Assembly (NCBI RefSeq): GCF_964213995.1
Contig: NC_135822.1
Coordinates: 17,608,001-17,672,000, forward strand
DNA from: Mustelus asterias
Taxonomy: Eukaryota
DNA length: 64,000 nucleotides
Direction of reading: 5' to 3'
Under the pieces are notes generated by a model. The model saw only the letters and a list, made by a program, of their open reading frames with translations, was not told where the DNA came from and made no database searches. Shown here piece after piece: positions 10,646 to 53,128 of this stretch. Both the position numbers and the translations under genes were made by a program. Numbering within the stretch: position 1 is the first letter of the stretch; the number at the start of each line of letters is the position of its first letter.

Positions 10646-10980
10646 TAGAAATCATAGAAACCCTACAGTGCAGAAGGAGGCCATTCGGCCCATCGAGTCT
10701 GCACTGACCACAATCCCACCCAGGCCCTACCCCCACATATTTACCCGCTAATCCCTCTAACCTACGCATCCCAGGACTCTAAGGGGCAATTTTTAACCTG
10801 GCCAATCAACCCAACCCGCACATCTTTGGACTGTGGGAGGAAACCAGAGCACCCAGAGGAAACCCACGCAGACAAGAGGAGAATGTGCAAACTCCACACA
10901 GACAGTGACCCGAGCCGGGAATCGAACCCAGGACCATGGAGCTGTGAAGCAGCAGTGCTAACCACTGTGCTACCGTGCCG
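10646..10980 (-). mobile_element. HE1 SINE (tail A)
   Basis: Family sequence, reverse orientation. Confidence 0.85.
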
Positions 10981-11809
10981 CACCTGATTTCATCCAGTCA
11001 CCCAGCCACTTGGTCAACAGCCATTGCAGCTGCACCTGGTGTCAGCTGCTTTGGAGATGGAGTTCAATGGCAAAAAGCAATGGCAGGAGTTTGGGAGAAG
11101 GGGTGATGGCAGTGGGAGGTTGTGATAAACCTCGAGGAATCTGTCTAGAGTAAGCAACCACATCCCCATCTCCTTCCTCTGAGCCACATTCTATTGGGAA
11201 GGGATCTACACCTTCAGGCTGAAACCACAAGAGAGTGATTGAGCTACTCAGAGATCAACAACCACTACCTCAAAGTGCTCATGATAATTGCGGTTTTATT
11301 TTATTTTCCATTTTTCTCCCCTCATCTCCTGAAGGTGTCAGCTCAAGTCGGGAGCAATCCCGCTGGTAACTTTCCCCATCAGCCTGGACAGTGAATACCA
11401 GCCCGCTGCTCAATCATGCGGATGGTCACACCCATTTCCAAGCTGGATAGGGATATGGAATTGCACTCCCTCCCCTACCACGGTGCTGAGGCTAGTGGCA
11501 GCCCCCATGGCAGTGAGGGGCTACTGCCGCCCAAAGCTGAATCAGCCTAGATAAAGGAATTGAACCTGCAGCCCAGTACGAGATGACAGCACACGCTGCA
11601 TTTATTCACTGATGCTTAATCTGCTCCATTTATTTAGCTGTTTCCTTTGTCAATTACGGTTTTGAGATGTATTGCTTTGTGTTTAGGGTGAGGGATATTC
11701 AGTATCAGGAAATGAAACAGTTTCATGCTTTGTGCACCCAGTGTGAGGGTCAGCATGAAATACTCCCAGGTTGGATAGAGCATAGGTTAAATACAGAGTA
11801 AAGTTCTCA

Positions 11810-13035: not shown

Positions 13036-13356
13036 TTAGTTCATACAGCGCTGTAGCTGCGTTATGCCTGCGAGGTTCAGTCCGCTGGCCGTCAACAGAC
13101 TCTTGGCTCTCAAGTCTTCCAGCTCGTCCTTAACCGCTTGCCACTTCTTCATCATTCTCCTCATCTCCTCCTGCTTTACCTTCAGCCGTTTCCTCAACTT
13201 CTCGTTCTTCTCCAGGGCAGAGAACAGCCTCTTCTTCATCATGCCCAGGTTGGTGGCAGCGTAAGTGTGGTCAGCACTGCCCTCGGAGGGAGCACCTTTC
13301 TCCAGACTTGCCTGAAGTGGGTTTTCCTCTCCTGCGCTTGGAGGGGGCAGGGGTAC
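13036..13356 (-). CDS. THAP3: THAP3 last coding exon (DHTY motif, coiled coil)
   Basis: Acceptor TTCTGTTCCCTCAG|GTA; VPLPPPSAGEENPLQASLEKGAPSEGSADHTYAATNLGMMKKRLFSALEKNEKLRKRLK...CMN*. Confidence 0.9.
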   Translation of the reverse strand, partial: VPLPPPSAGEENPLQASLEKGAPSEGSADHTYAATNLGMMKKRLFSALEKNEKLRKRLKVKQEEMRRMMKKWQAVKDELEDLRAKSLLTASGLNLAGITQLQRCMN

Positions 13357-25300: not shown

Positions 25301-26919
25301 TTTATATTAGAGTACTGATCCTCTGGCTCCCTGTCTGATTTTATATTACAGTACTGATCTTCTGGCTCCCTGTCTGATTTTATATTACAGTACTGATGTT
25401 CTGGCTCCCTGTCTGATTTTATATTACAGTACTGATGTTCTGGCTCCCTGTCTGATTTTATATTACAGTACTGATCTTCTGGCTCCCTGTCAGATTTTAT
25501 ATTACAGTACTGATGTTCTGTCTCCCTGTCTGATTTTATATTACAGTACTGATGTTCTGGCTCCCTGTCTGATTTTATATTACAGTACTGATCTTCTGGC
25601 TCCCCGTCTGATTTTATATTACAGTACTGATGTTCTGGCTCCCCGTCTGATTTTATATTACAGTACTGATGTTCTGGCTCCCCGTCTGATTTTATATTAC
25701 AGTACTGATGTTCTGGCTCCCTGTCTGATTTTATATTACAGTACTGATGTTCTGGATCCCTGTCTGATTTTATATTACAGTACTGATGTTCTGGCTCCCT
25801 GTCTGATTTTATATTACAGTACTGATCTTCTGGCTGCCTGTCTGATTTTATATTACAGTACTGATGTTCTGGCTCCCCGTCTGATTTTATATTACAGTAC
25901 TGATGTTCTGGATCCCTGTCTGATTTTATATTACAGTACTGATGTTCTGGCTCCCTGTCTGATTTTATATTACAGTACTGATCTTCTGGCTGCCTGTCTG
26001 ATTTTATATTACAGTACTGATCTTCTGGCTGCCTGTCTGATTTTATATTACAGTACTGATGTTCTGGCTCCCCGTCTGATTTTATATTGCAGTACTGATG
26101 TTCTGGCTCCCTGTCTGATTTTATATTACAGTACTGATGTTCTGGATCCCTGTCTGATTTTATATTACAGTACTGATGTTCTGGCTCCCTGTCTGATTTT
26201 ATATTACAGTACTAATGTTCTGGATCCCTGTCTGATTTTATATTACAGTACTGATGTTCTGGATCCCCGTCTGATTTTATATTACAGTACTAATGTTCTG
26301 GATCCCTGTCTGATTTTATATTACAGTACTGATGTTCTGGATCCCTGTCTGATTTTATATTACAGTACTGATGTTCTGGCTCCCTGTCTGATTTTATATT
26401 ACAGTACTGATGTTCTGGGTCCCAGTCTGATTTTATATTACAGTACTGATCTTCTGGCTCCCTGTCTGATTTTATATTACAGTACTGATGTTCTGGGTCC
26501 CAGTCTGATTTTATATTACAGTACTGATGTTCTGGGTCCCAGTCTGATTTTATATTACAGTACTGATGTTCTGGATCCCTGTCTGATTTTATATTACAGT
26601 ACTGATGTTCTGGCTCCCTGTCTGATTTTATATTACAGTACTGATGTTCTGGGTCCCAGTCTGAGTCACTTGTGACAGCTGAGTTACTTGGCCCTGATGT
26701 GCAGCTGGCAGTTATAACACTATTTGTGCACACTAATTCTTCACACAAAATTAATGTGTGTATATATTTTTTAAACTTCTCGTTTTTGTAAAATGACTGT
26801 CCCACCTCAGCATATATTGATATTCGGCGACTCTGGCTGATTTACCTGTGGAAGGTGAGCTCCTTATTTTTGCTGCTGTACCTGTTGGTACAGTTATAGG
26901 CAGCGCACGACTTGGGCAT
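13036..26919 (-). CDS. THAP3: THAP domain-containing protein 3, join(26919-26846, 22342-22150, 17744-17664, 13356-13036), ~222 aa
   Basis: Assembled exons give MPKSCAAYNCTNRYSSKNKELTFHRFPFSKPDLLKQW...HTVICSEHFKPECF...RKNLKHNAVPTVF (C2CH THAP finger + AVPTxF box), a DHTY HCF-1-binding motif and a coiled coil; all junctions are GT-AG and phase-compatible; adjacent to PHF13 as in human. Confidence 0.92.
13665..14651 (+). mobile_element. solo-LTR-like element (TG...CA)
   Basis: Starts TGTGATGATACTGTGCCTTTAAGAAATG, ends ...CCCTTAACA; flanks CATT/CATC; related inverted copies at 57472 and 61209. Confidence 0.65.
15576..15900 (+). mobile_element. tRNA-headed SINE of a different family
   Basis: A-box TGGTGCAGTGGG and B-box GGTTCAAGTCC head; body differs from HE1. 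Confidence 0.55.
16052..17014 (-). mobile_element. young 5'-truncated CR1 LINE with open RT C-terminal frame
   Basis: ORF 16127-17092 includes YINDLEEG..SKFADDTK...[13 protein letters not shown]; (TTCTTTG)n tail. Confidence 0.92.
17190..17550 (-). mobile_element. Deu-domain SINE (SacSINE1/AmnSINE-like), degenerate
   Basis: GTGCAGCATTCTCCCTGAAGCAGTGGGGAGTCAGCTTGGATT segment; similar copies at 35525-35950, 39550-39900 and around 30600-31710. Confidence 0.6.
17664..17744 (-). CDS. THAP3: THAP3 coding exon 3
   Basis: TTGTTATTGCAG|CAG acceptor, ACG|GTAAGT donor, 81 nt, phase 0-0, QRHRARKKLKMATDIITPEVTEEKVET. Confidence 0.75.
18494..18532 (-). ncRNA. minimal type I hammerhead ribozyme motif (PLE terminus), degenerate
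   Basis: CCAC-CTGACGA-AGGAACAG-C-CTGTTCT-GAAA-GCCA-GTGG. Confidence 0.6.
21811..21849 (+). ncRNA. minimal type I hammerhead ribozyme motif (PLE terminus)
   Basis: CCAC-CTGACGA-AGGAACAG-C-CTGTTCC-GAAA-ACTA-GTGG. Confidence 0.65.
22150..22342 (-). CDS. THAP3: THAP3 coding exon 2 (THAP domain)
   Basis: CTCAG|G TTT acceptor, AAG|GTAAAG donor, 193 nt; FPFSKPDLLKQWMNNVGRAEFKPNQHTVICSEHFKPECFNTWGNRKNLKHNAVPTVFRYSEIVK. Confidence 0.95.
23570..23875 (-). mobile_element. HE1/V-SINE-type SINE (tail B)
   Basis: Family sequence, reverse orientation. Confidence 0.85.
23955..24012 (+). mobile_element. ~58-bp Penelope extreme-terminus insertion
   Basis: CTTACTGTGTTTACCCCAGTCCAACGCCGGCATCTCCACATCA flanked by the 12-bp TSD TGATTTACCTGT. 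Confidence 0.75.
24140..24365. mobile_element. old palindromic PLE-terminus-derived element
   Basis: CTGTGGAGAGAGAAACA (~24219) versus TGTTTCTCTCTCCACAG (~24306); same family as 8961-9095. Confidence 0.55.
24372..26662. repeat. 39-bp minisatellite, roughly 58 copies, in THAP3 intron 1
   Basis: Unit TTACAGTACTGATGTTCTGGCTCCCTGTCTGATTTTATA. Confidence 0.97.
26846..26919 (-). CDS. THAP3: THAP3 first coding exon
   Basis: ATG at 26919; MPKSCAAYNCTNRYSSKNKELTFH(R); donor CACAG|GTAAAT; 74 nt. Confidence 0.95.
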
Positions 26920-27320: not shown

Positions 27321-27497
27321 CTTGGTGGCTGTTGGGCAAGAGTTGGATGGCCAATGTACCTTTTCTTGAGAGATTTTCTTTTTCCATCACCAGCCCTCAC
27401 TGTGGGGTGGCACCGTAGTTATCACCGCTGCCGCACAATGCCAGGGACCTGGGTGATTTGATTTGGTTTACTATTTTCACATTAACTTTTAAGCTTA

Positions 27498-27795
27498 AGT
27501 TTATTTATTAGTGTCACAAGTATGCTTACATTAACACTGCCAATGAAGTTACTGTGAAAATCCCCATGTCACCACATTCCAGTGCCTGTTCAGGTACACC
27601 AAGGGAGAATTTACCATTGTCAATGCACCTAACCAGCACGCCTTTCAGACTGTGGGAGGAAACCAGAGCACCCGGAGGACACCCACGCAGACACGGGGGA
27701 AAACGCGCAAACTCTGCACAGTGACCCAAGCCAGGGATCGGACCCAGATCCCTGGCGTTGTGAGGCAGCTGTGCTAACCACTGTGCCACCATGCT
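27498..27795 (-). mobile_element. HE1/V-SINE-type SINE (tail B)
   Basis: Family sequence, reverse orientation. Confidence 0.85.
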
Positions 27796-27799
27796 GCAA

Positions 27800-28218
27800 G
27801 GGGAGAAGGAAAGGAGAGGGTGCAGAATATGGTGTTGCAGTTACAGATAGGGTGAAGAGAAAGATCAGCTTAATAAGTGGTAGGTCCATTCAAAAGTCTG
27901 ACGGCAACAGGGAAGAAGCTGTTCTTGAGTGGATTGGTACATGACCTCAGACTTTAGTATCTTTTTCCCGAAGAAAGAAGGTGGAAGAGAGTATGTCCAA
28001 GGTGTGTGGGGTCCTTGATTATGCTGGCTGCTTTCCCGAGGCAGCGAGAAGTGTAGATGGAGTCAATGGATGTGAGGCTGGCTTGCATGATGGATTGTGT
28101 TATTTTCACAACCCTTTGTAGCTTCTTGGAGTCTTGGTCAGAGCAGGAGCCATACCAAGCTGTGATACATCTGGAAAGGATGTATCACATCTGTACATCT
28201 GTAAAAGTAGGTGAGAGT
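27800..28218 (-). mobile_element. LINE 3' fragment, probably Rex1/Babar clade
   Basis: Minus strand reads like an RT C-terminus (YCITAWYGSC..D.KKLQRVV...RLKNSFFP). Confidence 0.6.
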
Positions 28219-28299
28219 CAAATGACCAAAGTGCATTTTCTTGGAAGATTTTCTTTTTCAGTTGATTGATTTCCATCACCAGCCCTCATCTCCATCTAT

Positions 28300-35257: not shown

Positions 35258-35484
35258 TCAGTCGAGGAAGTGCTTTCTGCAGCCGGTTCGAGATCGGTTC
35301 GATCGTCGAATGTCGAATTTGGAGTCTCGACACCTTTGACAGACATACACCTCCGGGACATTGGACTTGCGGATTTTGGCACAGGACAAATGGATCCAGG
35401 TACCACACTCGTTGCATTCAATCATTGGCCTGCCAGCAAAGGGCTTCATGCAGTAACACGTCACCAGGTCCCAGGAATCATCAT
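35258..35484 (-). CDS. PHF13: PHF13 last coding exon (PHD finger)
   Basis: CTTCTCCAACAG|AT acceptor; C4HC3 PHD finger; stop at 35258. Confidence 0.95.
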
Positions 35485-38400
35485 CTGTTGGAGAAGGTCC
35501 AAAGATTAAATCACAAATCAGATCAACAATAATTTGCATTTATATAGCATCTTTTGTAAGCTCAGGATGTCCCAAAGCACTTTACATCCAATAGAGTGCT
35601 TTCAGAGAGCGATCATTGTTGTAACATAGGAATAGAAGTAGCTCATTTGTGCACAGTGAGATCCCACAAAGAGCAATGTGATCATCACTAGACTACCTAT
35701 TTTAGTGATGTTGATTGATGGATAATTATTGACCAGGACATAAAGGACATGTACTTTTTAATATCCACCCGAGAGGGCCAATGGAACCTTGGTTTAAATG
35801 TCTCAGCCAAATGAGGGTATCTCTCTGATGGTGCAGCAGTCCCTCAGTATTGCAACGGGAGTGTCAGCATGGATTTTGTGCTCAGGTCGTTGAGAGTGGG
35901 AAATTAACCCATAGACTTTCTGGCTCAGTGACAACAGTGCCATACACTGAGCAGCAGCTGTGGGCTCACATGGGAAAAGTGACCATTTGGACAAGGTTCT
36001 GCAGGATGGCCAGAAGTTGTACCATGCAGATCTCAGGCTTCAGGAGATTCCAAGTTTTCTAAGGAAATTGGTGGTTTGAGAAGTACAAGAAACATTTACA
36101 ATTAAATAACCGACAGCCAAGAACATGTGAACAAGGCAAAGCTTGATGGATATCTCTACAGGGTCAATAGGGGCCGCAAACTTCATTTTAAAATTGTTAA
36201 TTAACTAGTGTGCAAACACATCGGCATCTCTCGGTCTCCAGTTCAAAAAAGCCACCCTGTGTTTGATCATTCAGCCTATCTACTATTTTTCTAAGCAAGA
36301 TTGGCACTTAACTGCTGTGGAGTTCTGCTCTTGTTTTTGTATAGGGCAGTTCCCCTTTAAGGGGCTGCCCCTTTCACTTTATCCCTCATTTGTTCAATCA
36401 TTTAAACTCAAAAGAGTCGGAACTGGACTGAGCAGGACTCAAGTCATATCACTGAGAAAGAGAGAGAGAAGACAGAGGAACAGTGAGGCACCATTCAGCC
36501 CCTCGAATATGTTCTACTATTTAATTAGCTGTTTATTACCCTTAATACCTTTGCACAACAAGAACTGTTGATGTCAGATTTGAAATTTTCAACTGACCCC
36601 AGCCTCAATGTGATGTGTCTCGGGGGGGGGGCATTAGAATGGCCATGTTCTAGTTTTGAGGTTATACCCTTGTTCTGGACTCCCCACCACAGAGCAAGTA
36701 GGCAAGATAACGAGAAACTATCAAATAATTAATCATCATCTTAAACACATCAATGTAATCACCCCATACTCTTTGAAACAAGTCCAGTCCATGAAACCTT
36801 TTGGGTTTCTCAATCTGTAATAATCCCTTCAACATTGGAAAGCTGGAAAGGACTCCCGTGTAGCTGTCTATAGTCATTGAAGAATTAGTTTGGTTTACAA
36901 ATGCAGTCATGCAAATCGCGAACGTCCCTTGTTGCTGTCACAGACCTGAGCAATAGTAGCTTTAGGGGCAGCTAAAATTGGCCTCAGTACCCCTGAACTA
37001 GGGAGGGGGAATCAAGCAGAATGTTCCCTTCTGGAAGGTGAATATAAATTTAACAGCTGTATAAAAGGCTTGATGTGATTCCCCACAAGTAGGGTGGTCC
37101 TCACCATGAAGAAATGACAATGGACAGGATCTATTGAAAACCACCTGAGAGCAATAGAATCAAACCCCAACAACGTTCAGCATGTCAAAAGTAAAGGGAG
37201 GAGTAGCCTTGGAAATGTTGGAATACAAAGGTGTATCATCTTAAATATTACAAAAGTAATTATTTAATTCACTGAGGTGTACACTAGGAAACAGGGTTAA
37301 TACGTGGTTAGACAGCAGTTTATCCCATGCATGATTGTAGAGTGTCTGACACGGGGAGATCGTACAGGGTCTGACACGGGGAGATCGTACAGGGTCTGAC
37401 ACGGGGAGATCGTACAGGGTCGGACACGGGGAGATCGTACAGGGTCGGACACGGGGAGATCGTACAGGGTCGGACACGGGGAGATCGTACAGGGTCGGAC
37501 ACGGGGAGATCGTACAGGGTCGGACACGGGGAGATCGTACAGGGTCGGACACGGGGAGATCGTACAGGGTCGGACACGGGGAGATCGTACAGGGTCGGAC
37601 ACGGGGAGATCGTACAGGGTCGGACACGGGGAGATCGTACAGGGTCGGACACGGGGAGATCGTACAGGGTCGGACACGGGGAGATCGTACAGGGTCGGAC
37701 ACGGGGAGATCGTACAGGGTCGGACACGGGGAGATCGTACAGGGTCGGACACGGGGAGATCGTACAGGGTCGGACACGGGGAGATCGTACAGGGTCGGAC
37801 ACGGGGAGATCGTACAGGGTCGGACACGGGGAGATCGTACAGGGTCGGACACGGGGAGATCGTACAGGGTCGGACACGGGGAGATCGTACAGGGTCGGAC
37901 ACGGGGAGATCGTACAGGGTCGGACACGGGGAGATCGTACAGGGTCGGACACGGGGAGATCGTACAGGGTCGGACACGGGGAGATCGTACAGGGTCGGAC
38001 ACGGGGAGATCGTACAGGGTCGGACACGGGGAGATCGTACAGGGTCGGACACGGGGAGATCGTACAGGGTCGGACACGGGGAGATCGTACAGGGTCGGAC
38101 ACGGGGAGATCGTACAGGGTCGGACACGGGGAGATCGTACAGGGTCGGACACGGGGAGATTGACCTGGGCCCACATCCATGGTGATCAGGCACATATGCA
38201 GGGTAGTGAGTACTGCCTCCAGGATTTCAATGAAGTGTAGGTGTGGGATATTTCCATACAATGTGTCCTTGAAATATGAAAAATGGAATCATAAACTCAA
38301 GACACTCAAACCAAGACCTGGAGATCACCGGCCCCTTGCATGGTTCTCTGGCACTATTCCTGGTGGGTACATGTGTCATTAGTATCGGTGATTATCATCC

Positions 38401-41400
38401 ATCACTAGTTCTGGCAGTTAGAAACCTGATGCATACAGCCCAACACTAGTCCTACCTAGTAGTTTGATGCTAGTTTTGCAGGTCTGTCGGTATTGCTACC
38501 TGTATGGAGCTGTCTCTGATCCTGTCCATTAGTCAGCCTGTTGTCATGCTCATTAGTGTTGGTCTGTCATTAGTGACAGTCCTTTCATTGTCTCAGCTGA
38601 GAGCTGGACAGTTAGCCCTGCAACTTTCCTTACCCACACAATTCAGTCCCACATTGGAAAGGGAATTTATCAACTGAGACACAGGGGATTGACTCTGCAC
38701 TACAGCCATACTGTCTAAGTACAGCAGTTTGTGGCAGACAATTATTTGGTGTTTAAAATGCTCACTTACCAGAATCCACCATGATGTCTTCATCATTCCC
38801 AGTCGTGTCCACGTCCCTGAACACAACCTGCTTTCCCTGTCGGAAAACGGTCCTCTGTCGCAGAACTTTCTCACATTTTATCGTCTCATTCATCACCTCT
38901 GTCGCAGGGGCCAGCAGAAAAGAACTGTCCTGGCCGGTGCTTGGGGAGTCTGTGAGGGGCTCCTGGATGAGTGGCTGCTGGGGAAGGGGTTCTGGAGTGA
39001 GGGGCTCCGAGGTGAGTGGCTGCTGGGCGCAGGATTGCTGGGAGTGAGGTTGCTGGGCGAGAAACTGCTGGGAGTGAGGTTCCAGGGAAATAGGTGCCGG
39101 TGCTGCATCCTCTCCTTCGTGGTCAGCAGAGTCTGGATTGGTTTCTGCGGCCGGGTTAGGGGGTTCCTGCTTGACCGTCTCCTCAATCTGAGGTTCCTCT
39201 ATCCTTGGGCTGCCTTCCTTTGCCCTCACCTCGCGCCTCCTCTTCACTTTGTCAGGCTTCCTGCGGTTGAAGGGGGGCAGCATGAAGCTGCCTGATTTGT
39301 GATGTTTCAGGAACGAGTATGGTTTGGCCCGTTTGAAGCTGGTGAATGTTTTCCTGCCTTTATTTGTGTCTGGGACAGAGAGCGGAAGGTCCCAGGGTTC
39401 ACTCTCTGCAGTGCTACCTGTGCTGTTGGGAGGACTGGAGCTCGTCCGCAGAGGCACCTCCTGAAAAAGGGAGAAAGACAACGGGTCAATAAACAGCTGC
39501 ACAGTTTCACCTCACCTCATGTCAGAGAATAATAAAGAGTCAGCTGAGGTTCAAAGGGCAGCATTCTTGGGGTCAAGTCCCACACAAGAGACGTACGCAC
39601 ATAATCTAAGTTGATACTCTTGGGCAGTACTGAGGGAGTGCGGCACTCTCAGAAGTGCCATTTTTGGATGGGACAAGGTCCCATCTGCCCATTCACCTGA
39701 AAATAAAAGATCACATTACACTATTTCAAAGAGGAACAGGGAAGTTCTCCCTGGCATCCTGAACTAATGCTTATCCCTCAATTAACCGCACTATAATTAA
39801 TTATTAATTAATTGCTTCTGGAACCTAGCTGGGCACAAATTGTCTGTGAGGCATTTAGGAGCATCCAGAGGTCGTGAAAGGTGCTATAGAAATGCAAGTC
39901 TTTCCCTGAATTTGAACAAATCTGCCTGGTGCTCTGCAGAGTCTTAACCAGCAGGTGGGTGGCTGCTCACAACTGGCAAAACCCGTGAAAATCAACACTT
40001 CAGGATGGAGAAGCAGCTTAGCTTCACAGAGTCAAACACAACACTTCTTTGGCCAAATGTCCCTGGTTTTCTTTGGAAATTGGCACATTCCAAGCAACAT
40101 GCTCAGAATGCCACAACATCAACAACAAAACAAAGAGTTTTACCCATAAACGGGATTGAAATAAGAAACAGATTACACTCAACTATTGACTCAATGTGTG
40201 CGAGTGGGAAGGGGAGGGGCTGGATAGAGAGAGGGCAGGTCTCCAGTTTGAGCCTGTGAGCTGACTGAAGAGAAACAGCTGCTGAACAGAAATCTCAACG
40301 CTGTGACATTATTGCAATACATGTCTAGTAATTGAAGGGGTGAAGGGAGGAGGTGATAAGTCTGCCCATCAAATTCGGAAGCAATGATCTTCCTTTTAAA
40401 AGCCCTCCATTCTCCCCCAGTTGGATATTGTTACAGAGATGTCACCTCTGGGTGCATACTACTAGTCCGATGCTGAGAGTTGTAACTTCTTCCTGGCCAG
40501 GTTCATTTTCACCTGGCAACAATCACAGAATCCTCTCCCCTCCCACTCCACATCATCATTCTCTTATGCACCATCTTCCTCTAGGCTGCAACAAAATCAG
40601 ACAAGTTTTGTAACAATTTATTATGCTCGTGTTTAAGGATACTGACTTCTCATCCCTTTGTCAGCCCTCTTTCCTCTCATACATTTTGTAAACACTAACT
40701 CCTCTCTGATATCGGGAGGCACGATGGCACAGTGATTAGTACTGCTGCCTCACAGCACCAGGGACCGGGTTCAATTCCAGCCATGGGTGATTGTCTGTGT
40801 GGAGTTTGCATGTTCTCCCTGTGCCTACGTGGGTTTCCTCCGGGTGCTCCGGTTTCCTTCCACACTCCAAAGATGTGCAGGTTAGGTGGATTGGCCATGA
40901 TAAATTGTCCCTTAGAGTCAGGGGGATTTGGAAGGTAAATATGTGGGGTTACAGGGATAAGGCCTGGGTAGGATTGTTGTTGGTGCAGGCTGAATGGGCC
41001 GAATGGCCTCCTTCTGCATTATACAGATTCTATGATCTCAATCAAGCAGCCCCTGTCTCCAGACAGTGACTGACGAACAGCTGAATATAGTCTCAGTCAG
41101 CTCATCTCATCTTCATCTGAAGTGCATGGTTACATACATACATGGTGTGACAAGTTGAGGAAAAAGATTTTGGATTGGGAAAGAGTAGATTTCAACAAAA
41201 TTAGGCAGGATCTGGCCAAGGTAGACTGGAACAAGTTACTTGTGGGGAAATCTACAGAAGAGCAGTGGGGGATGTTCAAAGATGAAATGGAGAGGGTACA
41301 GGCTCACCACGTTCCCTCTAGATAAAGAGGAAGGTGTAACAAACTCAGAGAACCATGGATGACCAGAGACATTCAGGGTACAATGAGAAGGAAAAGAGAG

Positions 41401-44400
41401 GCTTTTAACAAGTATCATAGAATCACAGAATTCCTACAATGCAGAAGGAGGCCATTCGGCCCATCAAGTCTGCACCAACCACAATCCAACCCAAACCCTA
41501 TATATTTACCCTGACATTAGGGTCAATTTATGACCAGTCAACCTAACCCACACATCTTTGAACTGTGAGAGGAAACTGGAGCACCCGGAGGAAACCCACC
41601 CAGAGACGGGGAGAATGTGCAAACTCCACACAAAGAGTGACCCGAGGCCGGAATTGAACCCGGTTTGTGAACAGAACTCCCACTTACCTGATGATGGAGC
41701 AGCGCTCCGAAAGCTAGTGGCTTGTGCTACCAAATAAACTTGTTGGACTTTAACCTGGTGTTGTGAGACTTCTTGCTGTGTTCACCGGGGAGGTGCCAGA
41801 GACTGGAGAACAGCTAATATGGTCCTACTATTTAAGAAAGGTTGTAGAGACAAGCCAGGGAACTACAGAGCAGTGAGTCTCATGTCTGTGCTTGGGAAAC
41901 TACTGGAGAAGATTCTGAAGGAGAGAAGCTATCTCCATTTGGAGAGGCAAGATTTGATCAGGGATAGCCAGCATGGTTTTGTCAGAGGGAAGTCATGCCT
42001 AACAAATTTGATTGAATATTTTGAGCATGTAACCAAGTGTGTGGACGAGGGTAGTGCGGTTGATGTAGTTTACATGGATTTCAGCAAAGCCTTTGACAAA
42101 GTCCCACATGGGAGACTTATTAAGAAGGCTAATGCACATGGGATACAGGGTGATTTGATGAGGTGGATTCATAATTGGCTTAGCGGTAGGAGACAGAGGG
42201 TGGTGACAGACTGCTGCTATAGTGACTGGAGGCCAGTGACCAGTGGCGTACCACAGGGATCTGTGCTGGGCCCCCTATTGTTCCTCATTTATATAAATGA
42301 CATAGATGACTATGTGGGGAGTAGGATCAGTAAATTTGCCAATGACACAAAGATTGGCCGGGTGGTTAACAGTGAGGTTGAGTGTCTTGGGTTACAGGAA
42401 GATATGGACGAGATGGTCAAATGGGCGGATAAGTGGCAGATGGAATTTATCCCTGAAAAGTGTGAGGTGATACACTCTGGAAGGAGTAATTTGACAAGGA
42501 AGTATACTATGAAAGGTCTGACAGTGGGAAGTTCTGAAGACCAAAGGGACCTTGGCGTGTTTGTCCATAGATCTCTAAAGGCGGAAAGGCAGGTTAATAG
42601 GATGGTGAAAAAGACATATGGCACACTGGCTTTTATCAATCAGGCTACAGATTACAAAAGCAGAGAGGTCATGACGGAGTTGTTTAGAACTTTGGTGAGG
42701 TCACAGCTGGAGTACTGTGTGCAGTTCTGGTCGCCACTTTATAGGATGGACGTGAACACACTGGAGGGGGTGCAGAGGAAATTCACCAGGATGCTGCCTG
42801 GGATGGAACATTTAAGTTATAAAGAGAGGTTGGATAGGCTTGGAATGTTTTCTCTGGAGCAGAGAAGACTGAGGGGGCGACCTGAATGAGGTGTTCAAGA
42901 TTATGAGGGGCATGGACAGGGTGGATAGGGAGCAGCTGTTCTCCTTAGTTGAAGGGTCAGTTACGAGGTGACAGAAATTAAAAGTGAGGGGTGGAAGATT
43001 TAGGGGGATTTGAGGAAAAACCTTTTTACCCAGAGGGTGGTGACGGTCTGGAATGCGCTGCCTGGGAGGGTGGTGGAGGCGTGATGCTTCACATCCTTTA
43101 AAAAGTACCTGGATGAGTAACTTGGCACATCATAACATTCAAGGCTGTTGGTCAAGTGCTGGCAAGTGGGATTAGGTGGGCAGGTCAAGGCCTTTTATAC
43201 GTCGGTGCAGACTCGATAGGCTGAAGGGCGCCTTCTGCACTGTTGTATTCTGTGATAGTAGGTGCAGGAATAGACTATTTGGCCCATCAAGCCTGCTCTG
43301 GCATTTGACAAGATCAAGCTTTATCAGATTGTGGCCTCTACTTTCCTGTCTATTCCCTTTGACTCCCTCGTCAATCAAGAATTTACCTGACTCAGTCTTA
43401 AAAATATTCAACAACCCTGCCTTCACTGCTCTTTGGGGAAGAGAATTCCACAGACTTATGACCCTCGGAGAAAAAATTCTCCACATCTTTGTCTTAGATG
43501 GGAGACTCTTATTTTTAAACTGTGTCCCCTAGGACTAGTCTTTCCCACACGGGGAAGCACCCATTCAGCATCTAGTTACCTTCCGGTAATCAGGAGCAGG
43601 AACCCTAGCTAGATTCTCCCCTCCTCAAGGCCAACTGCTCTGCCCCTATTCCCATCCCAGCTGAGGTCAACTAATTCAGCACGGATAATAAAACCATTCC
43701 GCACAGAAAGAGACAATTTGACCCCCTAGTATCGAGACTGTCTCTTTAGAAACGTTACCCCATTGGTCTGACTCTCTTTATTCTTTCTTCTTGGCCTTAC
43801 AGTTTCCACCCCTAGTATTTCTCTTTTTCCCCCTTTCCCAAATTACTATTGAATCTGATTCCACCACCTTTTCAAGGCATTGCAATCCAGGTGACCAATC
43901 AAACTGGGAATTTTCCAGCTTGGTTAATTACTGGATTAAATTCACTGAGCCATTGGGTGGAGGCTTACATGGGAATTAGGAGCAGAAGTAGGTAATTCAG
44001 CCCTTCGAGCCTGCTCTGCCATTCAATCAAATCATGGCTGATCTCAAATCCATCTCCCTACCTGTGCCCCATATCCCTTTAACCCATTTTTAATCAGAAG
44101 TACATCTATCTCCTTCTTGAAACCATCGTTACTGGAATTTAAATTGAGAACACTATCCACATTATCAGCATGTCTTTTCCAACAATCTGAGCAGGAAAGA
44201 CCCTTACTTCGTCAAATCGTAAAGGGTCAGAGAATAAAAGATTGGGGTTTGAAACAGGAACAGCTCAACTCACTTCTTGAGGGTAGGGGATGTATCCAGC
44301 ATAAACCAAGACAAAAGTACAGAATTTGTTAAAATCTTCCACTGTCCTGCACCTCTTATCTGTTGGAGTGTAGTCCTGGGAAGAAGGGAGAGAGAGAGAG

Positions 44401-47270
44401 AGATACAAGGTTAGAAATTAATCTGTGCAATCAGTACTGACACACACTGGCTCTGTACTGGCAGTCATGTGTGTTAACACAACTATATCACATTTTTCCA
44501 TTTGTTTTCTTCCTTTCTCGCTGAAGGGGGACAGTGCATGAGATTATACGTATGAATGAGGCTACATATTTTGCTTAGCTTTGCTTATACTTCACAACAA
44601 TCACTAATACGTCAAACCTTCAACATCTGAACAAAGTCTTGTCCAAAATCAGCCATGGTTTCTGCCATTATCTAGAAAATCAGTGGTTTAATGGGGTAGT
44701 ATGACTGAAAGAGAGGTGGGACTATTGTTTTGTGTCATCCCCAAGGTTTCCATATTTATTTATTAAAGTTTATTATTAGTGTCACAAGTAAGCTTACATT
44801 AACACTGCAATGAAGTTACTGTGAAAATCCCCCAGTCACCACACTCCAGTGCCTGTTCGGGTACACTGAGGGAGAATTTAACACAGCCAGCACATCTTTT
44901 GGATGAAACCGGAGCACCCAGAGGAAACCCACGCAGACACGGGGAGAACGTGCAGATTCCCCACAGACAGTGACCTAGGCCGAGTATCGAACCCAGGCCC
45001 CTGGCGCGGTGAGGCAGCAGTGCTAACCACTGTACCACCGTGCTGCCCCACAGTAAGTGGAATTTTCATGCTATTTTCAGCTAGGTAACACAGGGATACA
45101 GTATTGGTGAGGCAGATCAGTCACTGTATGTGAACTGAAAATGCTCCTGCGAAGCTGCTTTACTATGTTAATGGTGCTATATAAATGCAAGTTGTTGCTG
45201 TCTAACACTGGGATCCTGTTCTTGTGGATACAGAGGTCTGTCACTTATGCTGAGACAGCAATTTAAGCAGTGACTCTCAAATTATAGCTTAAGACTAATG
45301 ATAATTCCTGCCCTTTAACCACTGACACTGCAGAGCACAGGTATCACAGTGAGAACTGGAATAATATGCATCCATGTTACGTTATATAGTTTAAGTTTGC
45401 AAAGATCTGGACAACATCTTTCATCAACACCTTATAAAAAACTAATTTGACAATCAATTATTTTTTTGTCATTGATGCGTGTGAAATAATTTGGAACAAA
45501 AAAGACATTGTACATTGGAGGCAAACAGCCTGAACCTCTCTCCCCCCCCCCACAATACTACAGGACCTGTCCCGGGGAAGGTCAAATGCCCAATTAAACT
45601 CCAGGCACACAGTGTCCAGAATTATTACACTCCATCCTATCACTGTATCACCCTGGGGTGTCTAATAAACTGCTCTGCAATCATGCTAGAAATCATAGAA
45701 TCCCTACAGTGCAGAAGGGGGCCATTCAGCCCATCAAGTCTGCACCGACAATCCCACCCAGGCCCTATCCCTGTAACCCCACATATTTACCCCACAATCC
45801 CTCTAACCTACACATCCCAGAACACTAAGGGGGCAATTTAGCATGGCCAACCAACCTAACCCGCACATCTTTGGACTGTGGGAGGAAACCGGAGCACCCG
45901 GAGGAAACCCACGCAGACACAGGGAGAACGTGCAGACCCCGCACACAGACAGTGACCCAAGCCGAGAATTGAACCCGGGTCCCTGGAGCTGTGAGGCAGC
46001 AGTGCTAACCACCGTGCCGCCCCACATGATGGGATTGAAGCAAGTGGGTGGGGGGGGGGTACAAATTCAGGAAAATTCTGAAGGTGGACGATATGGAAGA
46101 GTTGACCTCTTGCCATCTAACCCCTCCCCCCTATAGCTGAGCAATGAAACAGGTCAGACAAGTTGCGCTCCAAAGCAGATCTCCATGTGAAAAATGTCAC
46201 CTATTTTAAAACAGCTCAACCCCAACAATAAACACAGTCCCGCAGATCAGGGAAAAAACATATATATACCAGGACTGCTGTGGCTTCCCGATTGTATCAA
46301 TCTCAATCCAACACTTCTCCCCAAGACTGGGCGGCATTGCTGTTATAATGCTGAGCTTTCTACCTCTCTGGCAGAGAATCCACACGCCAACAGCAGGGGA
46401 GTCCCTCCACCCACAATCACAACATTTGTACAAATGACACCACTTAACAAAGGGACCGATTCATTCCTTGTATTATGTTTAATACAATTCACTATCAGGT
46501 GAACCTTTTCATTTGGGCATAAACTAAGAGGGCGCCTCGGGGGAAGAGGGGACAGACACACATGCGAATGGAGGACGATTTGTCTTGGGTGTATTTTTTT
46601 TAAATAGGAGGGACATTTTTGGATTAGTAAAATCCAGGGCGGGGGATCAGAGCCCGGGGGTGGGGGCAGAGACAGGACGGTGCGGGACCATTAAAGTAGG
46701 AGAATGGAATTACTTTGAGAAAAGGAGGGAAGGACAGGAGGAAAAAGGGACGGGTCAGAGGCAAGATGGCGAATATTCATCATTAAAAAACACACACACA
46801 CCGGGATTGGCGATCTCGGAGGAACAGACAGGCAGCAGACACTTGGAGGGGAGGGAATTTATAAAACAGGACAGCTCTGATTTAAAAGGGAAATGTTCCC
46901 CCCCCCCCCCGCCTTCCCCTTCCCCGACAATAAATCCCCAACTTCAGATGGAAGCACAGCAAGGAGGCGGGATACAGCTTTATACAAAAACCTTAATCTG
47001 TTCAGATAATAACAATAAAGGGTTTTTAAATATATATTAATATGGTAAATTGACAAGATGGCGCAACGGAGCTGTGGTAGAATCAGAAACCTGTAGGCAT
47101 GAAATCCACACGACTGTCGACTGAAATTGACCAGCGTTCTAAAGAGAGATTTACCCCCCCCCCCTCCAAATTAAATCAAACATCATTCCCAAACCCCGGG
47201 GCCAGCCCACCGTTCAAAATTATTATAGAATTACCTCCGAGTCTAAAGTTGAAGGCGATGCAGAATCCAT
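35258..47270 (-). CDS. PHF13: PHD finger protein 13 (SPOC1), join(47270-47235, 44375-44274, 39460-38770, 35484-35258), ~351 aa
   Basis: MDSAS...; conserved N-terminal [23 protein letters not shown]; [13 protein letters not shown]; PHD finger [52 protein letters not shown]; GT-AG, phase-compatible junctions. Confidence 0.95.
35525..35950 (-). mobile_element. Deu-domain SINE
   Basis: GTGCAGCAGTCCCTCAGTATTGCAACGGGAGTGTCAGC core with an L2-like tail. Confidence 0.65.
37346..38160. repeat. 25-bp minisatellite, ~32 near-identical copies, PHF13 intron 3
   Basis: Unit GACACGGGGAGATCGTACAGGGTCG. Confidence 0.97.
38770..39460 (-). CDS. PHF13: PHF13 coding exon 3
   Basis: TTTTTCAG|GAG acceptor, TCTG|GTAAGT donor; [17 protein letters not shown]...DEDIMVDS. 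Confidence 0.93.
39550..39900 (+). mobile_element. Deu-domain SINE, degenerate
   Basis: GTTGATACTCTTGGGCAGTACTGAGGGAGTGCGGCACT core; tail AAAGGTGCTATAGAAATGCAAGT. Confidence 0.6.
40717..41036 (+). mobile_element. HE1 SINE (tail A)
   Basis: Family sequence. Confidence 0.85.
41416..41662 (-). mobile_element. HE1 SINE (tail A), 5'-truncated
   Basis: Family sequence ending at the B-box. Confidence 0.8.
41663..41786 (+). mobile_element. Penelope terminal fragment with hammerhead motif (41686-41720)
   Basis: TAC-CTGATGA-TGGAGC-AGC-GCTCC-GAAA-GCTA-GTGG followed by CAAATAAAC.TGTTGGACTTTAACCTGGTG. Confidence 0.75.
43255..43570 (-). mobile_element. CR1 3' end fragment
   Basis: [20 protein letters not shown] on the minus strand. 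Confidence 0.8.
44274..44375 (-). CDS. PHF13: PHF13 coding exon 2
   Basis: CTTCCCAG|GAC acceptor, GAA|GTGAGT donor; [34 protein letters not shown] (102 nt). Confidence 0.95.
44755..45047 (-). mobile_element. HE1/V-SINE-type SINE (tail B)
   Basis: Family sequence. Confidence 0.85.
45686..46022 (-). mobile_element. HE1 SINE (tail A)
   Basis: Family sequence. Confidence 0.85.
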
Positions 47271-49300
47271 GTCTATAAAGGAAAAGAGAAAATTCATTAG
47301 AGTTTTTACACTCCCAAAAGAGATTAGGAGGGAGAGGGAGAGGGAAAATGCCGAGGGCTCGCTGGAGGAGTTCAGGGTGTCGGGAGAAATCGCCGTGGAG
47401 AATAAAGAGGGCAGGTCAAACTTAAAAGTTACCCCAAATACCTCCCCCCCCCCCCCCCCCCGTAAATGTACGAGGGTGGCCTCGATGGGGGAGAGGAGTG
47501 GAGTCGGCTTGGGAGCTTTTTAATGTTTATTTCGCAAGGCTGATCAGTCTGAGACCAGACTGGCGGAGAGAGTGGGGGGCGGGGGAGAGACAGACAGAAG
47601 AATGGTAAAGCAGAAACCTCCCGGCTTCAACACAGAGGGGAGAGGGGAAGTGTTTCCCCACCATGGAAATAATACTCCACACCGATGTTGCCACCTCTCT
47701 TTCTCTCCATCCGAAAAATTAACACGAAAGGCGCCGAGTTAATTGTGAAAAGGGGGAAAATTCCCCAATTAATAAAAAAATTACACGCCCGCTCAGTCTG
47801 ATCTTTGGCTGCAATTGATCCGAATTGATGCTCTTTCGAAGGAAGAGAAAGAAAGTTACCAATCGTTTAAACGTAGCATTTAAAAGGCAGGGAGAGGGAG
47901 AAAATGCAGGGATCCGGAGCCCACCTTGGAAAGATTCTCGGGTGACACGATTTGTCATTCGGAATAAAAGGTTCTCCCACATCCGAGGCTTGGCTGTAAC
48001 GGTATTCCTCCAGATTTCAATCGGTTTCCAGAAAGAAAATAATTTAAAAAAATAAATTGATCCCTTTTCCCCCGCCGAATGATACAATGTAACAAAATCC
48101 TGATGTCAACCCTTAATCTTCATGTAAATGAGGTCCCTTCCATCAGCCTCGCGCCTTGGGGGTGGGACATGGATTAATCTTCTTAGCACAGTCTTTTATA
48201 AAAGAACAACTTCACTTGCACACACACACACAATGATTAATCTACATTTTTTGCCATCCTGTAAATGCCCTCTTCTTTATTGTTGTCTAACTAATGGTTT
48301 TAGATCAATCCAAAGTGTCCTCCCTACCTCTCCCGCTGGGTGTGTTTGTGCCCAACCCAACCCCCTGAAATAGTTGCTAGCAGGAATTTGCAAGAAGTTT
48401 TTTTTTCCACCCTTATCTTTGCTTACAAAGTCAGTTACAGATTTCCAAATTCACTTCGAAAGTGCACGGAGGGAGATGGCGAGGTCGGAGGGGCGGCTGT
48501 TGTGAGTTGATTTTCCCGGTGAGTGTAGCTGATTCTGTTGCAAGTTTGTTTCCCTCGCCCTCCAGACCCTCCCTCTCTTATTCCAAGGGCCAGTGGGGAG
48601 GGGAGGGGAGACAGATACAAGACAGCTTCAGGAAACAGACCCGTATCAGTTGCACCGTCTCTCCAGCCAGCACTTCCAGCCTCGTAGCGGAGGCTTAACT
48701 GGGGAATTTCTATGTATGATTCTGCTACATGTTTCTCCCCCTTGTTACTTAATAACAAGAGCTTGTTCTCGGTCTTCTATATCTTTCTCTAAAGGGTCGG
48801 GAGTCGCTCCCTTTGCAATGACAAAGGGTTTTCAATGGGCCTGTTCTCCAGACTACACGTGTGGGGGGAGACTGGCAGAGGGAGTTTCAGCCTGTATGGG
48901 GCCCACGTCACCAGTTTTCACTCTCTCCCGCAAACAAACGGGGGACTATTTTTGGCTTTTAATTAACCAGATCTTTGTGAAAGTAGATGCTTTGTGGTTA
49001 GGAGCCACAGCGCTCCGTGCGGTTTGTTTATAACCGTGTAAGGTATAAAACATTTTCCCCAATTGAAATTAGGCGTACCAAATGAGTATTATTTTTCAAA
49101 ATCGTTCTTCTCGCGATTCGACGGTTGCATGGAATTTTGGTGGGGTTTATATATAGAATACTGGATAGCCAGCAGGCAGTTACAGGCTGCAATCTAATCG
49201 AGGTGTCCAGTTAGTGTCTATGTATAGAATAAGTGAATCCCGGCGGTGAGTTTTCAAGGCTTGAGATTTAAGCGACGGGTTTAGGTAGGTTTGTATCCAT
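46500..49300 (-). promoter_or_regulatory. PHF13 5' CpG-enriched, repeat-free regulatory region
   Basis: Elevated CpG, no recognisable TEs, YY1-like CAAGATGGCG at ~46762 and ~47054, G/C tracts. Confidence 0.6.
47235..47270 (-). CDS. PHF13: PHF13 first coding exon
   Basis: ATG GAT TCT.. [12 protein letters not shown], donor GAG|GTAATT, inside a CpG-rich region. Confidence 0.8.
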
Positions 49301-50606
49301 CTATCGCTTTGAAGTGAATGAGGAGGGCGTTGGAAATTTTCTTTACGGTTGTTGGAACATGGAATGCTTTTGAGTTTTCATTTTATGAGGCAGGCATCAT
49401 TCAAGCACCTTGAGCTATTCTCTACACTTAAAGGTACTAAATGAATGCAAAGATGTCGCTTTTGATGGATAACTCGAGAAATATATGGTGTTGAGTATCC
49501 GAGGGGGCTTAAAGTGGAATTATAGAATCAATTTTGATTGTTGGAGAGGAAAATCAGTACAGATTTGACAGGCCAAATAACAGAACATTTACTGATTTAT
49601 CCCTCGCTTAATCGTTTTGCCAGGACGATTAACAGAATGTTTTTGCCCCTCAGTTGATTCAATTTAGTTTAATTGTTTTACCAAAAAGATTAACAGGCCG
49701 AATGGCCTTTTGGCCAGTAACCTTTTATAGTTTCTTTTGTGGCTGTCCTTCGTTACACATTTTCATGAGCTTATTCTTGGGTCATTCATTACGAAAATGA
49801 TTCTGCCATTTATCATTGAGGGATTTCACCTGGTGTTATGATCTGGTTGGGGGAGGTTAACATTTATTGAAGAAATCCAAACAACCAGCAATTAACTGAC
49901 ATAACTACAGCACAAGATCACTTTTTTAAAACAAAAATAAACTTTATTGTATATCGAAAATAAGTTGGCAAGTTGAGCACTATTAACACTAAAGCTCAAA
50001 AACTTGTGTTCCAGCTCTCCCAATAATTCCCTTCCCTTCACAAAATCTTTAACATTCATTTCCTTCTCCTGGGACCAATTTAAAAGATGTATCACAGCCC
50101 ACTGGAATTCACTGTGATCTTTCTTCCATGTTCCAGCTATTCGCCAAGTTACAAGATTTCATGGGGGTCCTTCCATTAACTTTTTGACTGAGAGACTCTT
50201 AATTTATTTACTGACCTCTGGATTCCAAAGCTCAAGCATAAGCCTCCCTCTGACTTCTGTGGAGTGACTTAACAGATATTTTAACACCTTTTACTCCAAT
50301 AGACTTCTGCTGTGGTTTTAAGCTACAACCAAGCTGATTACTTCGAGAACTACAACAAGATTACAACTGCCTTTTAGAGTATAACTAGATTTCTTCCTTT
50401 AGCTTCCAACTAAACATATCTGCCTGTACTCTTTTACCCTTACCTACTTTGTCTTATACTGAATACCAGCTCCCACTCATGTATGATAGATTTAGTATTT
50501 CCTCTACTTCAGGTGTAGGTCTGGCTTTTTCACTTGACTTCTAATGAGCTACAAATTATATACAACCCAAAGCTAATACAGTTCCGTAGTTGCTTTTCCA
50601 AACATC

Positions 50607-50654
50607 TTCCTACTGTGATTACCCCAGTCCAACGCCAGCATCTCCACATCATGA
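50607..50654 (+). mobile_element. ~48-bp Penelope extreme-terminus insertion
   Basis: TACTGTGATTACCCCAGTCCAACGCCAGCATCTCCACATCATGA flanked by the TSD TTTCCAAACATC. Confidence 0.7.
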
Positions 50655-50840
50655 TTTCCAAACATCAACCAACCTTGCCTGCTGGTTATGTTCTAACTGA
50701 ATTCACAGAGGGAACTAAAGTCAAACTCCACCCATCTCCATGGCAATGTGACAGACCTGGCCTGTTCCCAGGCAGAAATGCAAATGAACTGGCTTTTAAT
50801 TCCAAAGCTTTCCTTAATTCTGGGAAACCACACGAATGAC

Positions 50841-51192
50841 TTTTTTTAAAATACTTTTCTAATTCAATCAAATCAAATCCAATTCAGAGTCTCAACAAGT
50901 TGAGACATTTCAGATCCAGGCTGACAAGACAGGGTGAGCGACCAAACTACCCTGTCCTGGGCCTGATCTACATGAGCCAAGCTGATTGGAGAAGGGGGAG
51001 GTTCCTCCTCCAAGACTTGAGCTCATTTGCATCTTAGCCAAAAGGCCGAGATGCCGCTTTAAAAAATTGCTTCATATGAAACATATGAAGCTTCAGTGTA
51101 ACCTAATGACCTCAACCAAGTGCGGCTGACCATGGGCTGCCGATCATACTACACTTGATCTTAGCCAAAAGGCCGAGAAGCGAATAGGCCAA
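50841..51192 (-). mobile_element. U2 snRNA-headed short retroposon (candidate SINEU-like or Keno/Utopia derivative)
   Basis: U2 nt 2-39 at 51183-51146, second U2 copy (nt 7-27) at 51051-51031, A-rich 3' end, TSD GAAACCACACGAATGAC at 50824-50840 and 51193-51209. Confidence 0.8.
51146..51183 (-). ncRNA. U2 snRNA 5' fragment (nt 2-39), not a full U2 gene
   Basis: TCGCTTCTCGGCCTTTTGGCTAAGATCAAGTGTAGTAT, identical to the vertebrate U2 5' end. Confidence 0.9.
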
Positions 51193-53128
51193 GAAACCAC
51201 ACGAATGACTTATCCTTTAATGGACAAACTGTAAACTCCTGTTCTTTAGTTAAGTAAGCCCACCTGCTGTTCATGATCTTGTCTATCTTGCTGTTGACCT
51301 CTTAAGTCAACATGTCCCAACCTTTAAGTGTAATAAACTCCAAGCTTATTTTAATTGTATCTACTTCAGGGCTGCTTTTATTCATTTCGCAACCAGATGA
51401 GCTTGTTTTCTGCAGTTAAGAATTTTAATTGCTAAAATTGAAAGCCATATTCTAAAACATAAATTATAAACTAGATATTTGCAACATTAGGTTAACCTTT
51501 CAGTGCAGATATTAATTTTTAAAAAATGTTCCACGGGTCCGCAACTTGGATGGTTATCATTCAGTGCCTAAAAGATTTTTGTTACTTTGGGATATGTAAT
51601 TTAATGCAATAAAATCACTCATTTAGAATATACAGAAAAACGCTCTTCGCAACAGGAAAATAAACTGGAGCCACAATATCTGCCGTCTCCAAAATTAACT
51701 TCTGCATAAACTCACCCAATGTGAACATTTAATCATGTGCTGTTTTAAAGAAGCACAGCTATATTTTAGCAGAATATTGTTTTTCAAGAACAACCCTCTT
51801 TACAGTAATATTACAACAGTAATTAACCTGAAATTTCCAAGGTTGCAAGTGTCCTCTACACTTTTTTGATCGTTGGTGAGGATGACACATCATTTAATCA
51901 AATTAACAAAAAGTGTTCCCTTTTTCAAAGAACATATAAACTATAAAATCAAAATATTAAATTTTTTAAAATGAAGGAAACTATCAAGTTAAATCATTAG
52001 ATTATTTGGTGTTTGCCACACTTTGGCCTTGCCAATCAAGGATGGCCTCGAATATAGCAGCAGACACTGTCCTTAAGTATCCTGGTGTGGACATAGCTGC
52101 GGAAAGGAGATAGGTAGTGACAAGTGCCGTCTACGCAGTGTGTATACAGTTCCCTAGATTTAACTTTCTAATTATAGGATACATCAGGAATTAGGAATAG
52201 GCTTTGGAATTAAAAGATAGTTCATTTGCATTTCCATCTGGGAACAGGCCATGTCTGTCACGTTGCCATGGAGATGGGTGGTGCTCAGTGGGTTTCTTTG
52301 GCTTGAGTTCCCTCTGTGAATTCAGTTGGAGCATAACCAGCAGGCAAGGTTGGTTGATGTTTGGAGGAGCAGCTAAGAAACTGTTAGCTTTGGTCTTGTG
52401 TAGCTTGTAGCTCCTTGGAAGTCGAGAGAAAAGGCTTGGCCCTACACCAGGCATCTGACATCCCTATGAACAATGCCACGGGAGATCAGCTAATGTATAC
52501 TATAAATGTTTAATGATCTACCTTGAGCTGAATCTACATGCACATACACTTCCTGCAACCGGAAGCTAATGACAGCATTGTCTGAGTGGTGATGCAGTGC
52601 AGTCATTGCTTCCAGTCAGTCTATTAGAACAGGCGCAAAAAGAAATGCATTAAATGGTAATAACTAGGCACCCTAAAAGCAGAAAAGCCTGTTTCTGTTG
52701 CAGCTGGGGAGTGAAACCTCAGCAAATGTGTTTGCAGTTCTGAGCCTGGTCCTTGCCCCTCCTTCACTCCAAAGAGGGTTTCTCACAGATGGTGTGTGTT
52801 ATGCAAATCAGATGAGATGTGCTGTTATTAATTTTATAATGATGGACCCACACACAGCTCTTCAGTCAGTGAGAATGTATTTGGTTATTTAATTGTATAT
52901 TGTCTCTTGGGTTAGTGACCTTCACCAGTGGTTGCTCAATGAAAAGTGCAAGCTGTCAGTTTCACTGATGACACGGTGGGTAATTGCATCATGGGGATTT
53001 GGTACTGAGCGATATTACAGCAGTTCAAGAAGAAACCCGATCACCCGCTTGTCAAGGGACAGGCAACACGTTCCAGCCTTGTCAATAACACCCAGATCCC
53101 CTGATTTGATTTGTTTTTCAAAAGACCA

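Follow-up and report, generated by a model that had tools for sequence, protein, structure and literature searches.

The 350-nt insert located ~2.9 kb upstream of PHF13, on the same strand as this gene and outside its mapped coding exons, is best explained as a young copy of a retroposon that is short, non-coding and non-autonomous and carries a head of U2 snRNA sequence, a shark parallel to the SINEU elements of crocodilians; we put the probability of this explanation at slightly above one half (about 0.55). The first-pass annotation of the window (the entire 64-kb stretch of DNA that was analyzed) had proposed a retroposed, U2-headed, non-coding shark unit flanked by a target-site duplication (TSD), and this general picture is supported. 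The features of the insert are listed in Table 1.

Table 1. Features of the U2-headed insert and of the adjacent repeat, in the order of the minus strand
Feature	Position	Strand	Basis
5' copy of the TSD, 19 bp exact (17-19)	51193..51211	-	repeat search
8-9 extra bases ahead of the U2 match	51184..51192	-	sequence; start of U2 alignment
Head 1: U2 snRNA nt 2-39, stem-loop I and branch-point recognition motif	51146..51183	-	Rfam; by-eye match
Antisense arm: complementary to U2 nt ~11-37, diverged	51100..51132	-	folding, duplex energies
Perfect 10-bp hairpin	51069..51091	-	predicted fold
Single-stranded AAT6AA linker between hairpins	51057..51068	-	predicted fold, motif scan
Head 2: U2 stem-loop I, stem longer by 3 bp, without branch-point motif	51029..51054	-	blastn, Rfam, folding
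Three further hairpins: 51026-50972, 50970-50911, 50906-50889	50889..51026	-	folding
3' tail: fewer than three GATTT-like units, then A/T-rich end	50843..50888	-	sequence, Tandem Repeats Finder
3' copy of the TSD	50824..50842	-	repeat search
Older ~300-bp repeat, broken by the insert	50512..50823	.	repeat comparison within the window

Genomic context and boundaries of the insert

The coding exons of PHF13 span positions 35261-47982 on the minus strand and match Mustelus asterias, with the first annotated codon mapping to 47982. PHF13 of this species matches the exon at 38765-39511 with 100% identity, and that of the white shark with 81%, so that the adjoining gene bears out the shark origin claimed for the locus. 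CpG-rich patches are found in the PHF13 region at 47.0-48.0 kb and at 49.0-49.5 kb.

The insert, annotated as a minus-strand unit of ~350 nt, indeed extends from 51192 to 50843, between exact 19-bp direct repeats at a spacing of 369 (50824-50842 and 51193-51211); about 2e-4 such pairs are expected by chance in 64 kb at spacings of 100-1000 bp. The duplication length is given as 17-19 bp because the two inner bases merge with the A-run, and the range in the annotation was right. The U2 sequence had been placed at the very start of the unit; it is present at the 5' end, but 8-9 additional bases (51192-51184), which may be untemplated, a template-jump remnant or flanking sequence of the source, intervene after the duplication. 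At the opposite end, the tail described as (GATTT)n contains fewer than three units and Tandem Repeats Finder reports none, so that the tail is weaker than the annotation has it. Comparison with the LINE ends in the window and Tandem Repeats Finder likewise leave a microsatellite tail of the CR1/L2 type unsupported. The A-run at the 3' end is only 5-7 nt long and is partly common to the duplication, and neither AATAAA nor ATTAAA is found in the tail (50843-50888).

The cut context on the nicked strand is ACTT/AT, only a loose fit to the L1 consensus. According to PMC2912911, insertions of the L1 type show long TSDs, TTTT/AA-like cuts and extra 5' bases, and LINE1 is reported from all vertebrate lineages surveyed in PMC4350176, the elephant shark included. 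Given the long TSD, the T/A-type cut, the A-rich end and the extra 5' bases, the insert most likely arose when an L1/Tx1-type enzyme carried out target-primed reverse transcription. A Dada DNA transposon was considered and rejected: Dada elements are described as generating TSDs of 6-7 bp within U1, U6 or tRNA genes (PMC3706591), and here the duplication is 17-19 bp long and the insert lies outside RNA genes. The copy is probably young, given that the duplication and head 1 are undamaged; the CpG content (observed/expected 0.40 in the insert vs 0.38 in the window) lends no support to its youth because the depletion equals that of the window.

The insert is located at the inner end of the older repeat, the inverted partner of which (52188-52448) is 76-84% identical to 50512-50820. 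The homology with the partner picks up weakly at ~51205-51237, just beyond the duplication (a score matched by 10 of 2410 control tiles), which points to an insertion into older DNA. The partner does not contain most of the duplicated bases, so that its support for an empty site is modest. The two arms of this pair (50512-50823 and 52188-52448) lie ~1.4 kb apart, are the sole two copies in the window and could be the terminal repeats of a DNA transposon that has decayed. A scan of 18 flanking frames, with 11 of the 28 listed ones outside it, gave one sub-threshold, unrelated match and no transposase domain, and none was detected between the inverted repeats. In addition, the older repeat contains a 60-bp insertion at 50595-50673 that is bounded by short direct repeats (16/19 identical) and matches the end of a repeat present at 18394, 23969 and 30811.

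The two U2-derived heads

Head 1 matches human U2 nt 2-39 at 38 of 38 positions, as judged by eye from the U2 line in S1 Fig of PMC4640811, and includes the branch-point recognition motif GTAGTA (51152-51147). An Rfam search identifies U2 with a score of 46.3 bits (E 4.5e-6); only the first 39 positions are well aligned, posterior values are low beyond nt 39, and the part of the alignment past this point is not real U2 similarity. U2 nt 40 and following are absent downstream of the insert, in accord with the annotation of a non-U2 locus. Judged by the same alignment, the insert also lacks the complete 3' domain of U2, which comprises stem II, the Sm site and stems III-IV.

The description of the remainder of the unit as non-U2 sequence needs correction, since a second U2 stem-loop I is present. 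Its core (51051-51031) corresponds to U2 nt 7-27 and is identical to head 1 at 21 of 21 positions, and positions 7-26 of the Rfam U2 model match it. Both changes flanking the core add base pairs, and the stem is predicted at -16.2 kcal/mol, vs -8.2 kcal/mol for the corresponding part of head 1. A dimer of two related monomers is a weak candidate architecture: the two bodies align with a score of 28, and 39 of 1000 dinucleotide shuffles and 20 of 300 plain ones score at least as high. In the 408 nt upstream of the insert, there is no octamer, and the four loose PSE-like matches, found at two mismatches to a generally known motif, are uninformative.

As the annotation noted, the U2 match stops at the insertion site of Keno (Tx1 clade) and Utopia (NeSL clade), both U2-targeting LINEs; head 1 ends at nt 38/39, where these elements are described as cutting U2 (PMC4640811, PMC6136364). 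The position fits, but it is a necessary rather than a diagnostic feature and the argument is weaker than stated, because retroposed snRNAs tend to be truncated within their single-stranded segments (PMC4476161), because the U2 head of SINEU-3 breaks at 32 bp (PMC4494074), and because a 20-bp Utopia duplication of the reptile type would predict a head longer than nt 39. Judged by its sequence, the insert does not belong to Keno or Utopia: it contains no open reading frame (no reverse transcriptase or endonuclease), and it lies outside a U2 gene, with a 3' flank that consists of the duplication and the old repeat.

The junction also fits a unit that, much like the R2 SIDEs (PMC3414825), derives from a LINE, here a U2-targeting one of sharks (Keno/Tx1 or Utopia), either by internal deletion or by retention of the UTRs only. 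Such a derivative would have been co-transcribed with U2 nt 1-38 and inserted off target, and repeat libraries may already list it as a LINE fragment or among unclassified repeats. R2 RNAs may retain target sequence from upstream, as much as 36 nt (PMC3774820), some Tx1-Mar LINEs bear U1 or U2 heads (PMC4494074), and reptile Utopia, which generates 20-bp duplications of U2, is described as inserting off target as well (PMC4640811). Like R2 SIDEs, the insert is a short non-autonomous unit that may have been co-transcribed with a structural RNA gene and carries a part of it; unlike them, it has no detectable HDV-like ribozyme, its host gene would be U2 rather than 28S, and the copy is off target. 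A figure in PMC4640811, compared by eye, reveals the 8-mer AAAAGTCA at the 3' junction that is common to the insert and the alligator Utopia end. This is a weak lead, and it is offset by the location of the 8-mer partly inside the duplication, so that it is partly target DNA. Furthermore, there is no clear U2-like target at the junction, the duplication is non-U2 sequence, unlike the Utopia duplications, no coding remnant is present, and cartilaginous fish are absent from the Utopia table in PMC4640811. With these points taken together, we consider a LINE derivative unlikely.

Coding, ribozyme and promoter content

All searches agree with the insert being non-coding, as far as can be judged from its sequence. 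The longest frame inside it consists of 65 codons, and no Pfam matches were obtained for four frames. A search of the 65-codon frame against a set of 5.8 billion proteins yields no candidate, and a search against 1.84 billion representatives yields three matches, all of which are summed weak matches in repetitive proteins and were rejected; a pooled protein search with the three other frames gives no candidate either.

Scans for RNA families other than U2 detect only chance-level matches in the body, none at the gathering score, and for the three 3' hairpins, too, the Rfam scan for a known source gave nothing above this level. No Rfam ribozyme and no hammerhead core were found in the insert. 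An HDV-like ribozyme was rejected: a loose descriptor matches the insert three times, always through the same perfect hairpin, and it also matches 4 of 30 control windows. A SINE transcribed by RNA polymerase III was rejected as well: by generally known motifs, the insert has no B box, one loose A-box-like match and an internal T6, which would stop this polymerase. A 3' box was not found in the insert.

Antisense arm and predicted fold

Read in reverse complement, the stretch between the two heads (51126-51100) aligns with U2 nt ~11-37 without gaps but with divergence; of 25 nt compared, 14 are identical and 6 are wobble-compatible. In the predicted structure, which, like all folds reported here, was obtained from one sequence, the arm and head 1 form a rod that covers the branch-point motif, with a probability of 0.99 for its central 10-bp helix. 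The arm-head 1 duplex is predicted at -34.7 kcal/mol, and none of 1000 shuffles and none of 1548 window tiles is as stable, with the qualification that the best shuffle, at -34.4, and the best tile, at -33.3, are not far behind and that the arm segment was picked after the fold was seen. The pairing of head 2 with the same region is weaker (-23.3).

The entire insert is predicted to fold into seven hairpins with a free energy of -143.6 kcal/mol (z -7.46; 0 of 100 shuffles as low), compared with -120.7 for the best of 104 GC-matched tiles and -115.1 kcal/mol for the opposite strand of the insert. Among all 182 tiles, only two fold lower, and these are the two strands of a single GC-richer tile at 5601. 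The 3' body alone (51027-50884) has a z of -6.4, and the flanks have values of 0.1 and 0.7. The excess of G.U over A.C (10 to 3, p = 0.046 under strand-neutral scoring) is weak, and 7 of the 10 G.U cases are in the 5' rod. Perfect hairpins can also come from palindrome repair at the DNA level.

Such a fold could also belong to a host RNA. The insert might be a processed pseudogene of a structured RNA derived from U2 (a long U2 variant or a regulator), transcribed from an snRNA-type gene and rarely retrocopied. It starts at the U2 5' end, two-thirds of its bases are predicted to be paired (118 pairs), the folding is strand-biased, and an AU6 stretch (T6 at 51066-51061) lies between two hairpins near the position of the Sm site in U2. 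The linker is Sm-site-like but lacks a G, which the Sm-site consensus usually includes. Moreover, the U2 motifs required for splicing are predicted to be paired away, the insert includes neither the U2 3' domain nor the 3' box, and no Rfam family reaches the gathering score in the body. A host-RNA pseudogene therefore appears quite unlikely.

The arm and head 2 also bear on the possibility of a one-off chimera, in which the reverse transcriptase switched from another structured RNA to U2 and thus added head 1 without any U2-headed master. snRNA chimeras (including snRNA/LINE ones) and 3'-truncated U2 retrocopies or pseudogenes with TSDs are well described (PMC4476161, PMC4494074, PMC5322556), and the insert resembles them in having a 3'-truncated U2 5' end between long TSDs. 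A late addition of head 1 would fit its undiverged state next to the altered head 2, and a single copy is seen in the 64-kb window. However, the insert differs from U2 retrocopies in its structured body of ~300 nt, its second U2 head and its arm complementary to the first head, and an arbitrary partner RNA is not expected to hold both a 25-nt complementary arm and a second U2 piece; should the arm itself capture U2 in trans, this would still make the body a unit adapted to U2. The arm has drifted with the pairing mostly kept and head 2 has been reshaped, next to an undamaged head 1 and duplication. Because the copy is probably young, these changes should predate the insertion, so that the template RNA probably evolved with the U2 leader. 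This argues against the one-off chimera, which we regard as improbable.

Comparison with snRNA-headed and shark SINEs

Among the published snRNA-headed elements, the closest design is that of SINEU, reported in PMC4494074 from crocodilians only. Like SINEU as described there, the insert is shorter than 500 bp and has a U2-derived 5' head, internal oligo-T (T6) without a B box, an A-rich end and 5' extensions. More than one of its segments is snRNA-derived, as in SINEU-1C/E/F/H and the dimeric 1D; in SINEU-1, head addition (U2/U1) and duplication occurred repeatedly (PMC4494074). Mobilization by a Tx1-type enzyme is plausible in both cases, and both are found within older repeats: SINEU, like Tx1-Mar, favors a Mariner-type transposon as the insertion site (PMC4494074), and the insert, with a single insertion to compare, sits in one arm of the old inverted repeat pair. 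The differences are the shark host, the lack of a U1 part, the lack of the U2 middle or 3' part when compared with SINEU-2 and -3, and, relative to the descriptions in the text of PMC4494074, the antisense arm and the locked second head. Thus, the best reading is that the insert is SINEU-like in design, a likeness that is drawn from the published description and from one shark copy. Given the lineages concerned, an origin independent of the crocodilian SINEU families is more likely. With a shark element of this design, snRNA-headed retroposons would have more than one origin.

The known shark SINEs, SacSINE1 and the CmiSINEs, are short retroposons as well; they have tRNA heads, and those of Callorhinchus have L2-type tails (PMC5499810). 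The insert differs from these tRNA-headed elements in its U2 head, and the tRNA-SINEs and LINE ends of the window share no sequence with it. Two types of tRNA-headed SINEs, with a common 5' part and different tails, are present at ~16 sites in the window (e.g., 5024-5316 and 10645-10984); one of the tails resembles the ends of local CR1-type LINEs, the other ends in AATAAATAAACTTT, and the copies are ~70-89% alike. None of 16 local tRNA-SINE copies examined has a flanking repeat longer than 6 bp; these SINEs are older and their duplications may have decayed.

Search for further copies

A second copy of the insert was sought in the 64-kb window by blastn with word size 7 and by a local-alignment scan with 10 tiles of 60 nt, and nothing was found above shuffled controls; nor does the end of the insert match a partner LINE tail in the window. 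Two exact patterns from the insert, searched in prokaryotic genomes for possible shark contamination, gave 0 and 0 matches, and plasmid and phage collections contain no match to it. These blanks, along with those in the protein sets, are nearly silent on copy number because such collections hold no shark genomic DNA. Titles and the openings of abstracts, with most of the subscription literature outside this scope, yielded no report of an snRNA-headed SINE from sharks. If the insert is single-copy, it is merely an unusual retrocopy.

Proposed mode of propagation

A retroposon of this kind would be propagated in three steps. First, a master copy would be read by RNA polymerase II into an RNA that starts with the U2 leader. 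The simplest source would be a U2 gene promoter, with the body inserted at the nt 38/39 site; the alternative is read-through from a flanking promoter, as proposed for SINEU, the transcription of which is described as an open question (PMC4494074). We would rate the two sources roughly 3 to 2, and the promoter would be identified if a master copy turned up within a U2 gene. Second, in the predicted fold, pairing between the arm and the U2 leader would bury the branch-point motif, and the older head 2 would be kept shut in its extended stem. With the leader covered and head 2 shut, the RNA would not be expected to take the role of U2 in splicing, and hiding the leader to keep the RNA out of the spliceosome may be the purpose of this arrangement. 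Third, an L1/Tx1-type LINE protein would nick the DNA at a T/A step, reverse transcription would be primed on the A-rich 3' end, and the RNA would be copied up to the U2 start, with a few bases added and the 17-19-bp duplication left behind.

An extended version of this scheme, in which an active shark family parasitizes the U2 promoter and has evolved an anti-U2 arm that hides the leader in cis, so that the RNA escapes the spliceosome, and grips U2 in trans, is a tentative possibility that we consider doubtful. If it is correct, the trans grip of the arm on cellular U2 could drive repeated capture of fresh U2 heads or tie up U2, and the family would mean that snRNA-headed SINEs originated independently a second time and would offer a concrete mechanism by which they are transcribed and re-headed. 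The arm predicts covariation with the head and a protected branch-point motif.

Other features of the window

Several other features of the 64-kb window appear worth recording. An inverted pair of 1.6-kb segments (18434-20033 and 20310-21910; 94.6% identity) with a weak reverse-transcriptase match is presumably Penelope-like. Two young tandem arrays are located at 24364-26664 (39 bp x 59, 94% match) and, in a PHF13 intron, at 37333-38160 (25 bp x 33, 99% match). An exact 19-bp direct repeat, the copies of which are 889 bp apart (27381-28288), surrounds a SINE copy and other sequence; with no clear tail present, it is an uncertain candidate for a TSD. Direct repeats of 70 bp (820-889 and 2745-2814; 91% identity, 1925 bp apart) enclose a degenerate tRNA-Leu-like sequence (1560-1643) and a SINE. 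Finally, an open frame on the minus strand at 13036-13401 encodes a coiled-coil-like sequence with only sub-threshold Pfam matches; given that THAP3 adjoins PHF13 in other vertebrates, this frame is a candidate for the final exon of a gene with a THAP domain.
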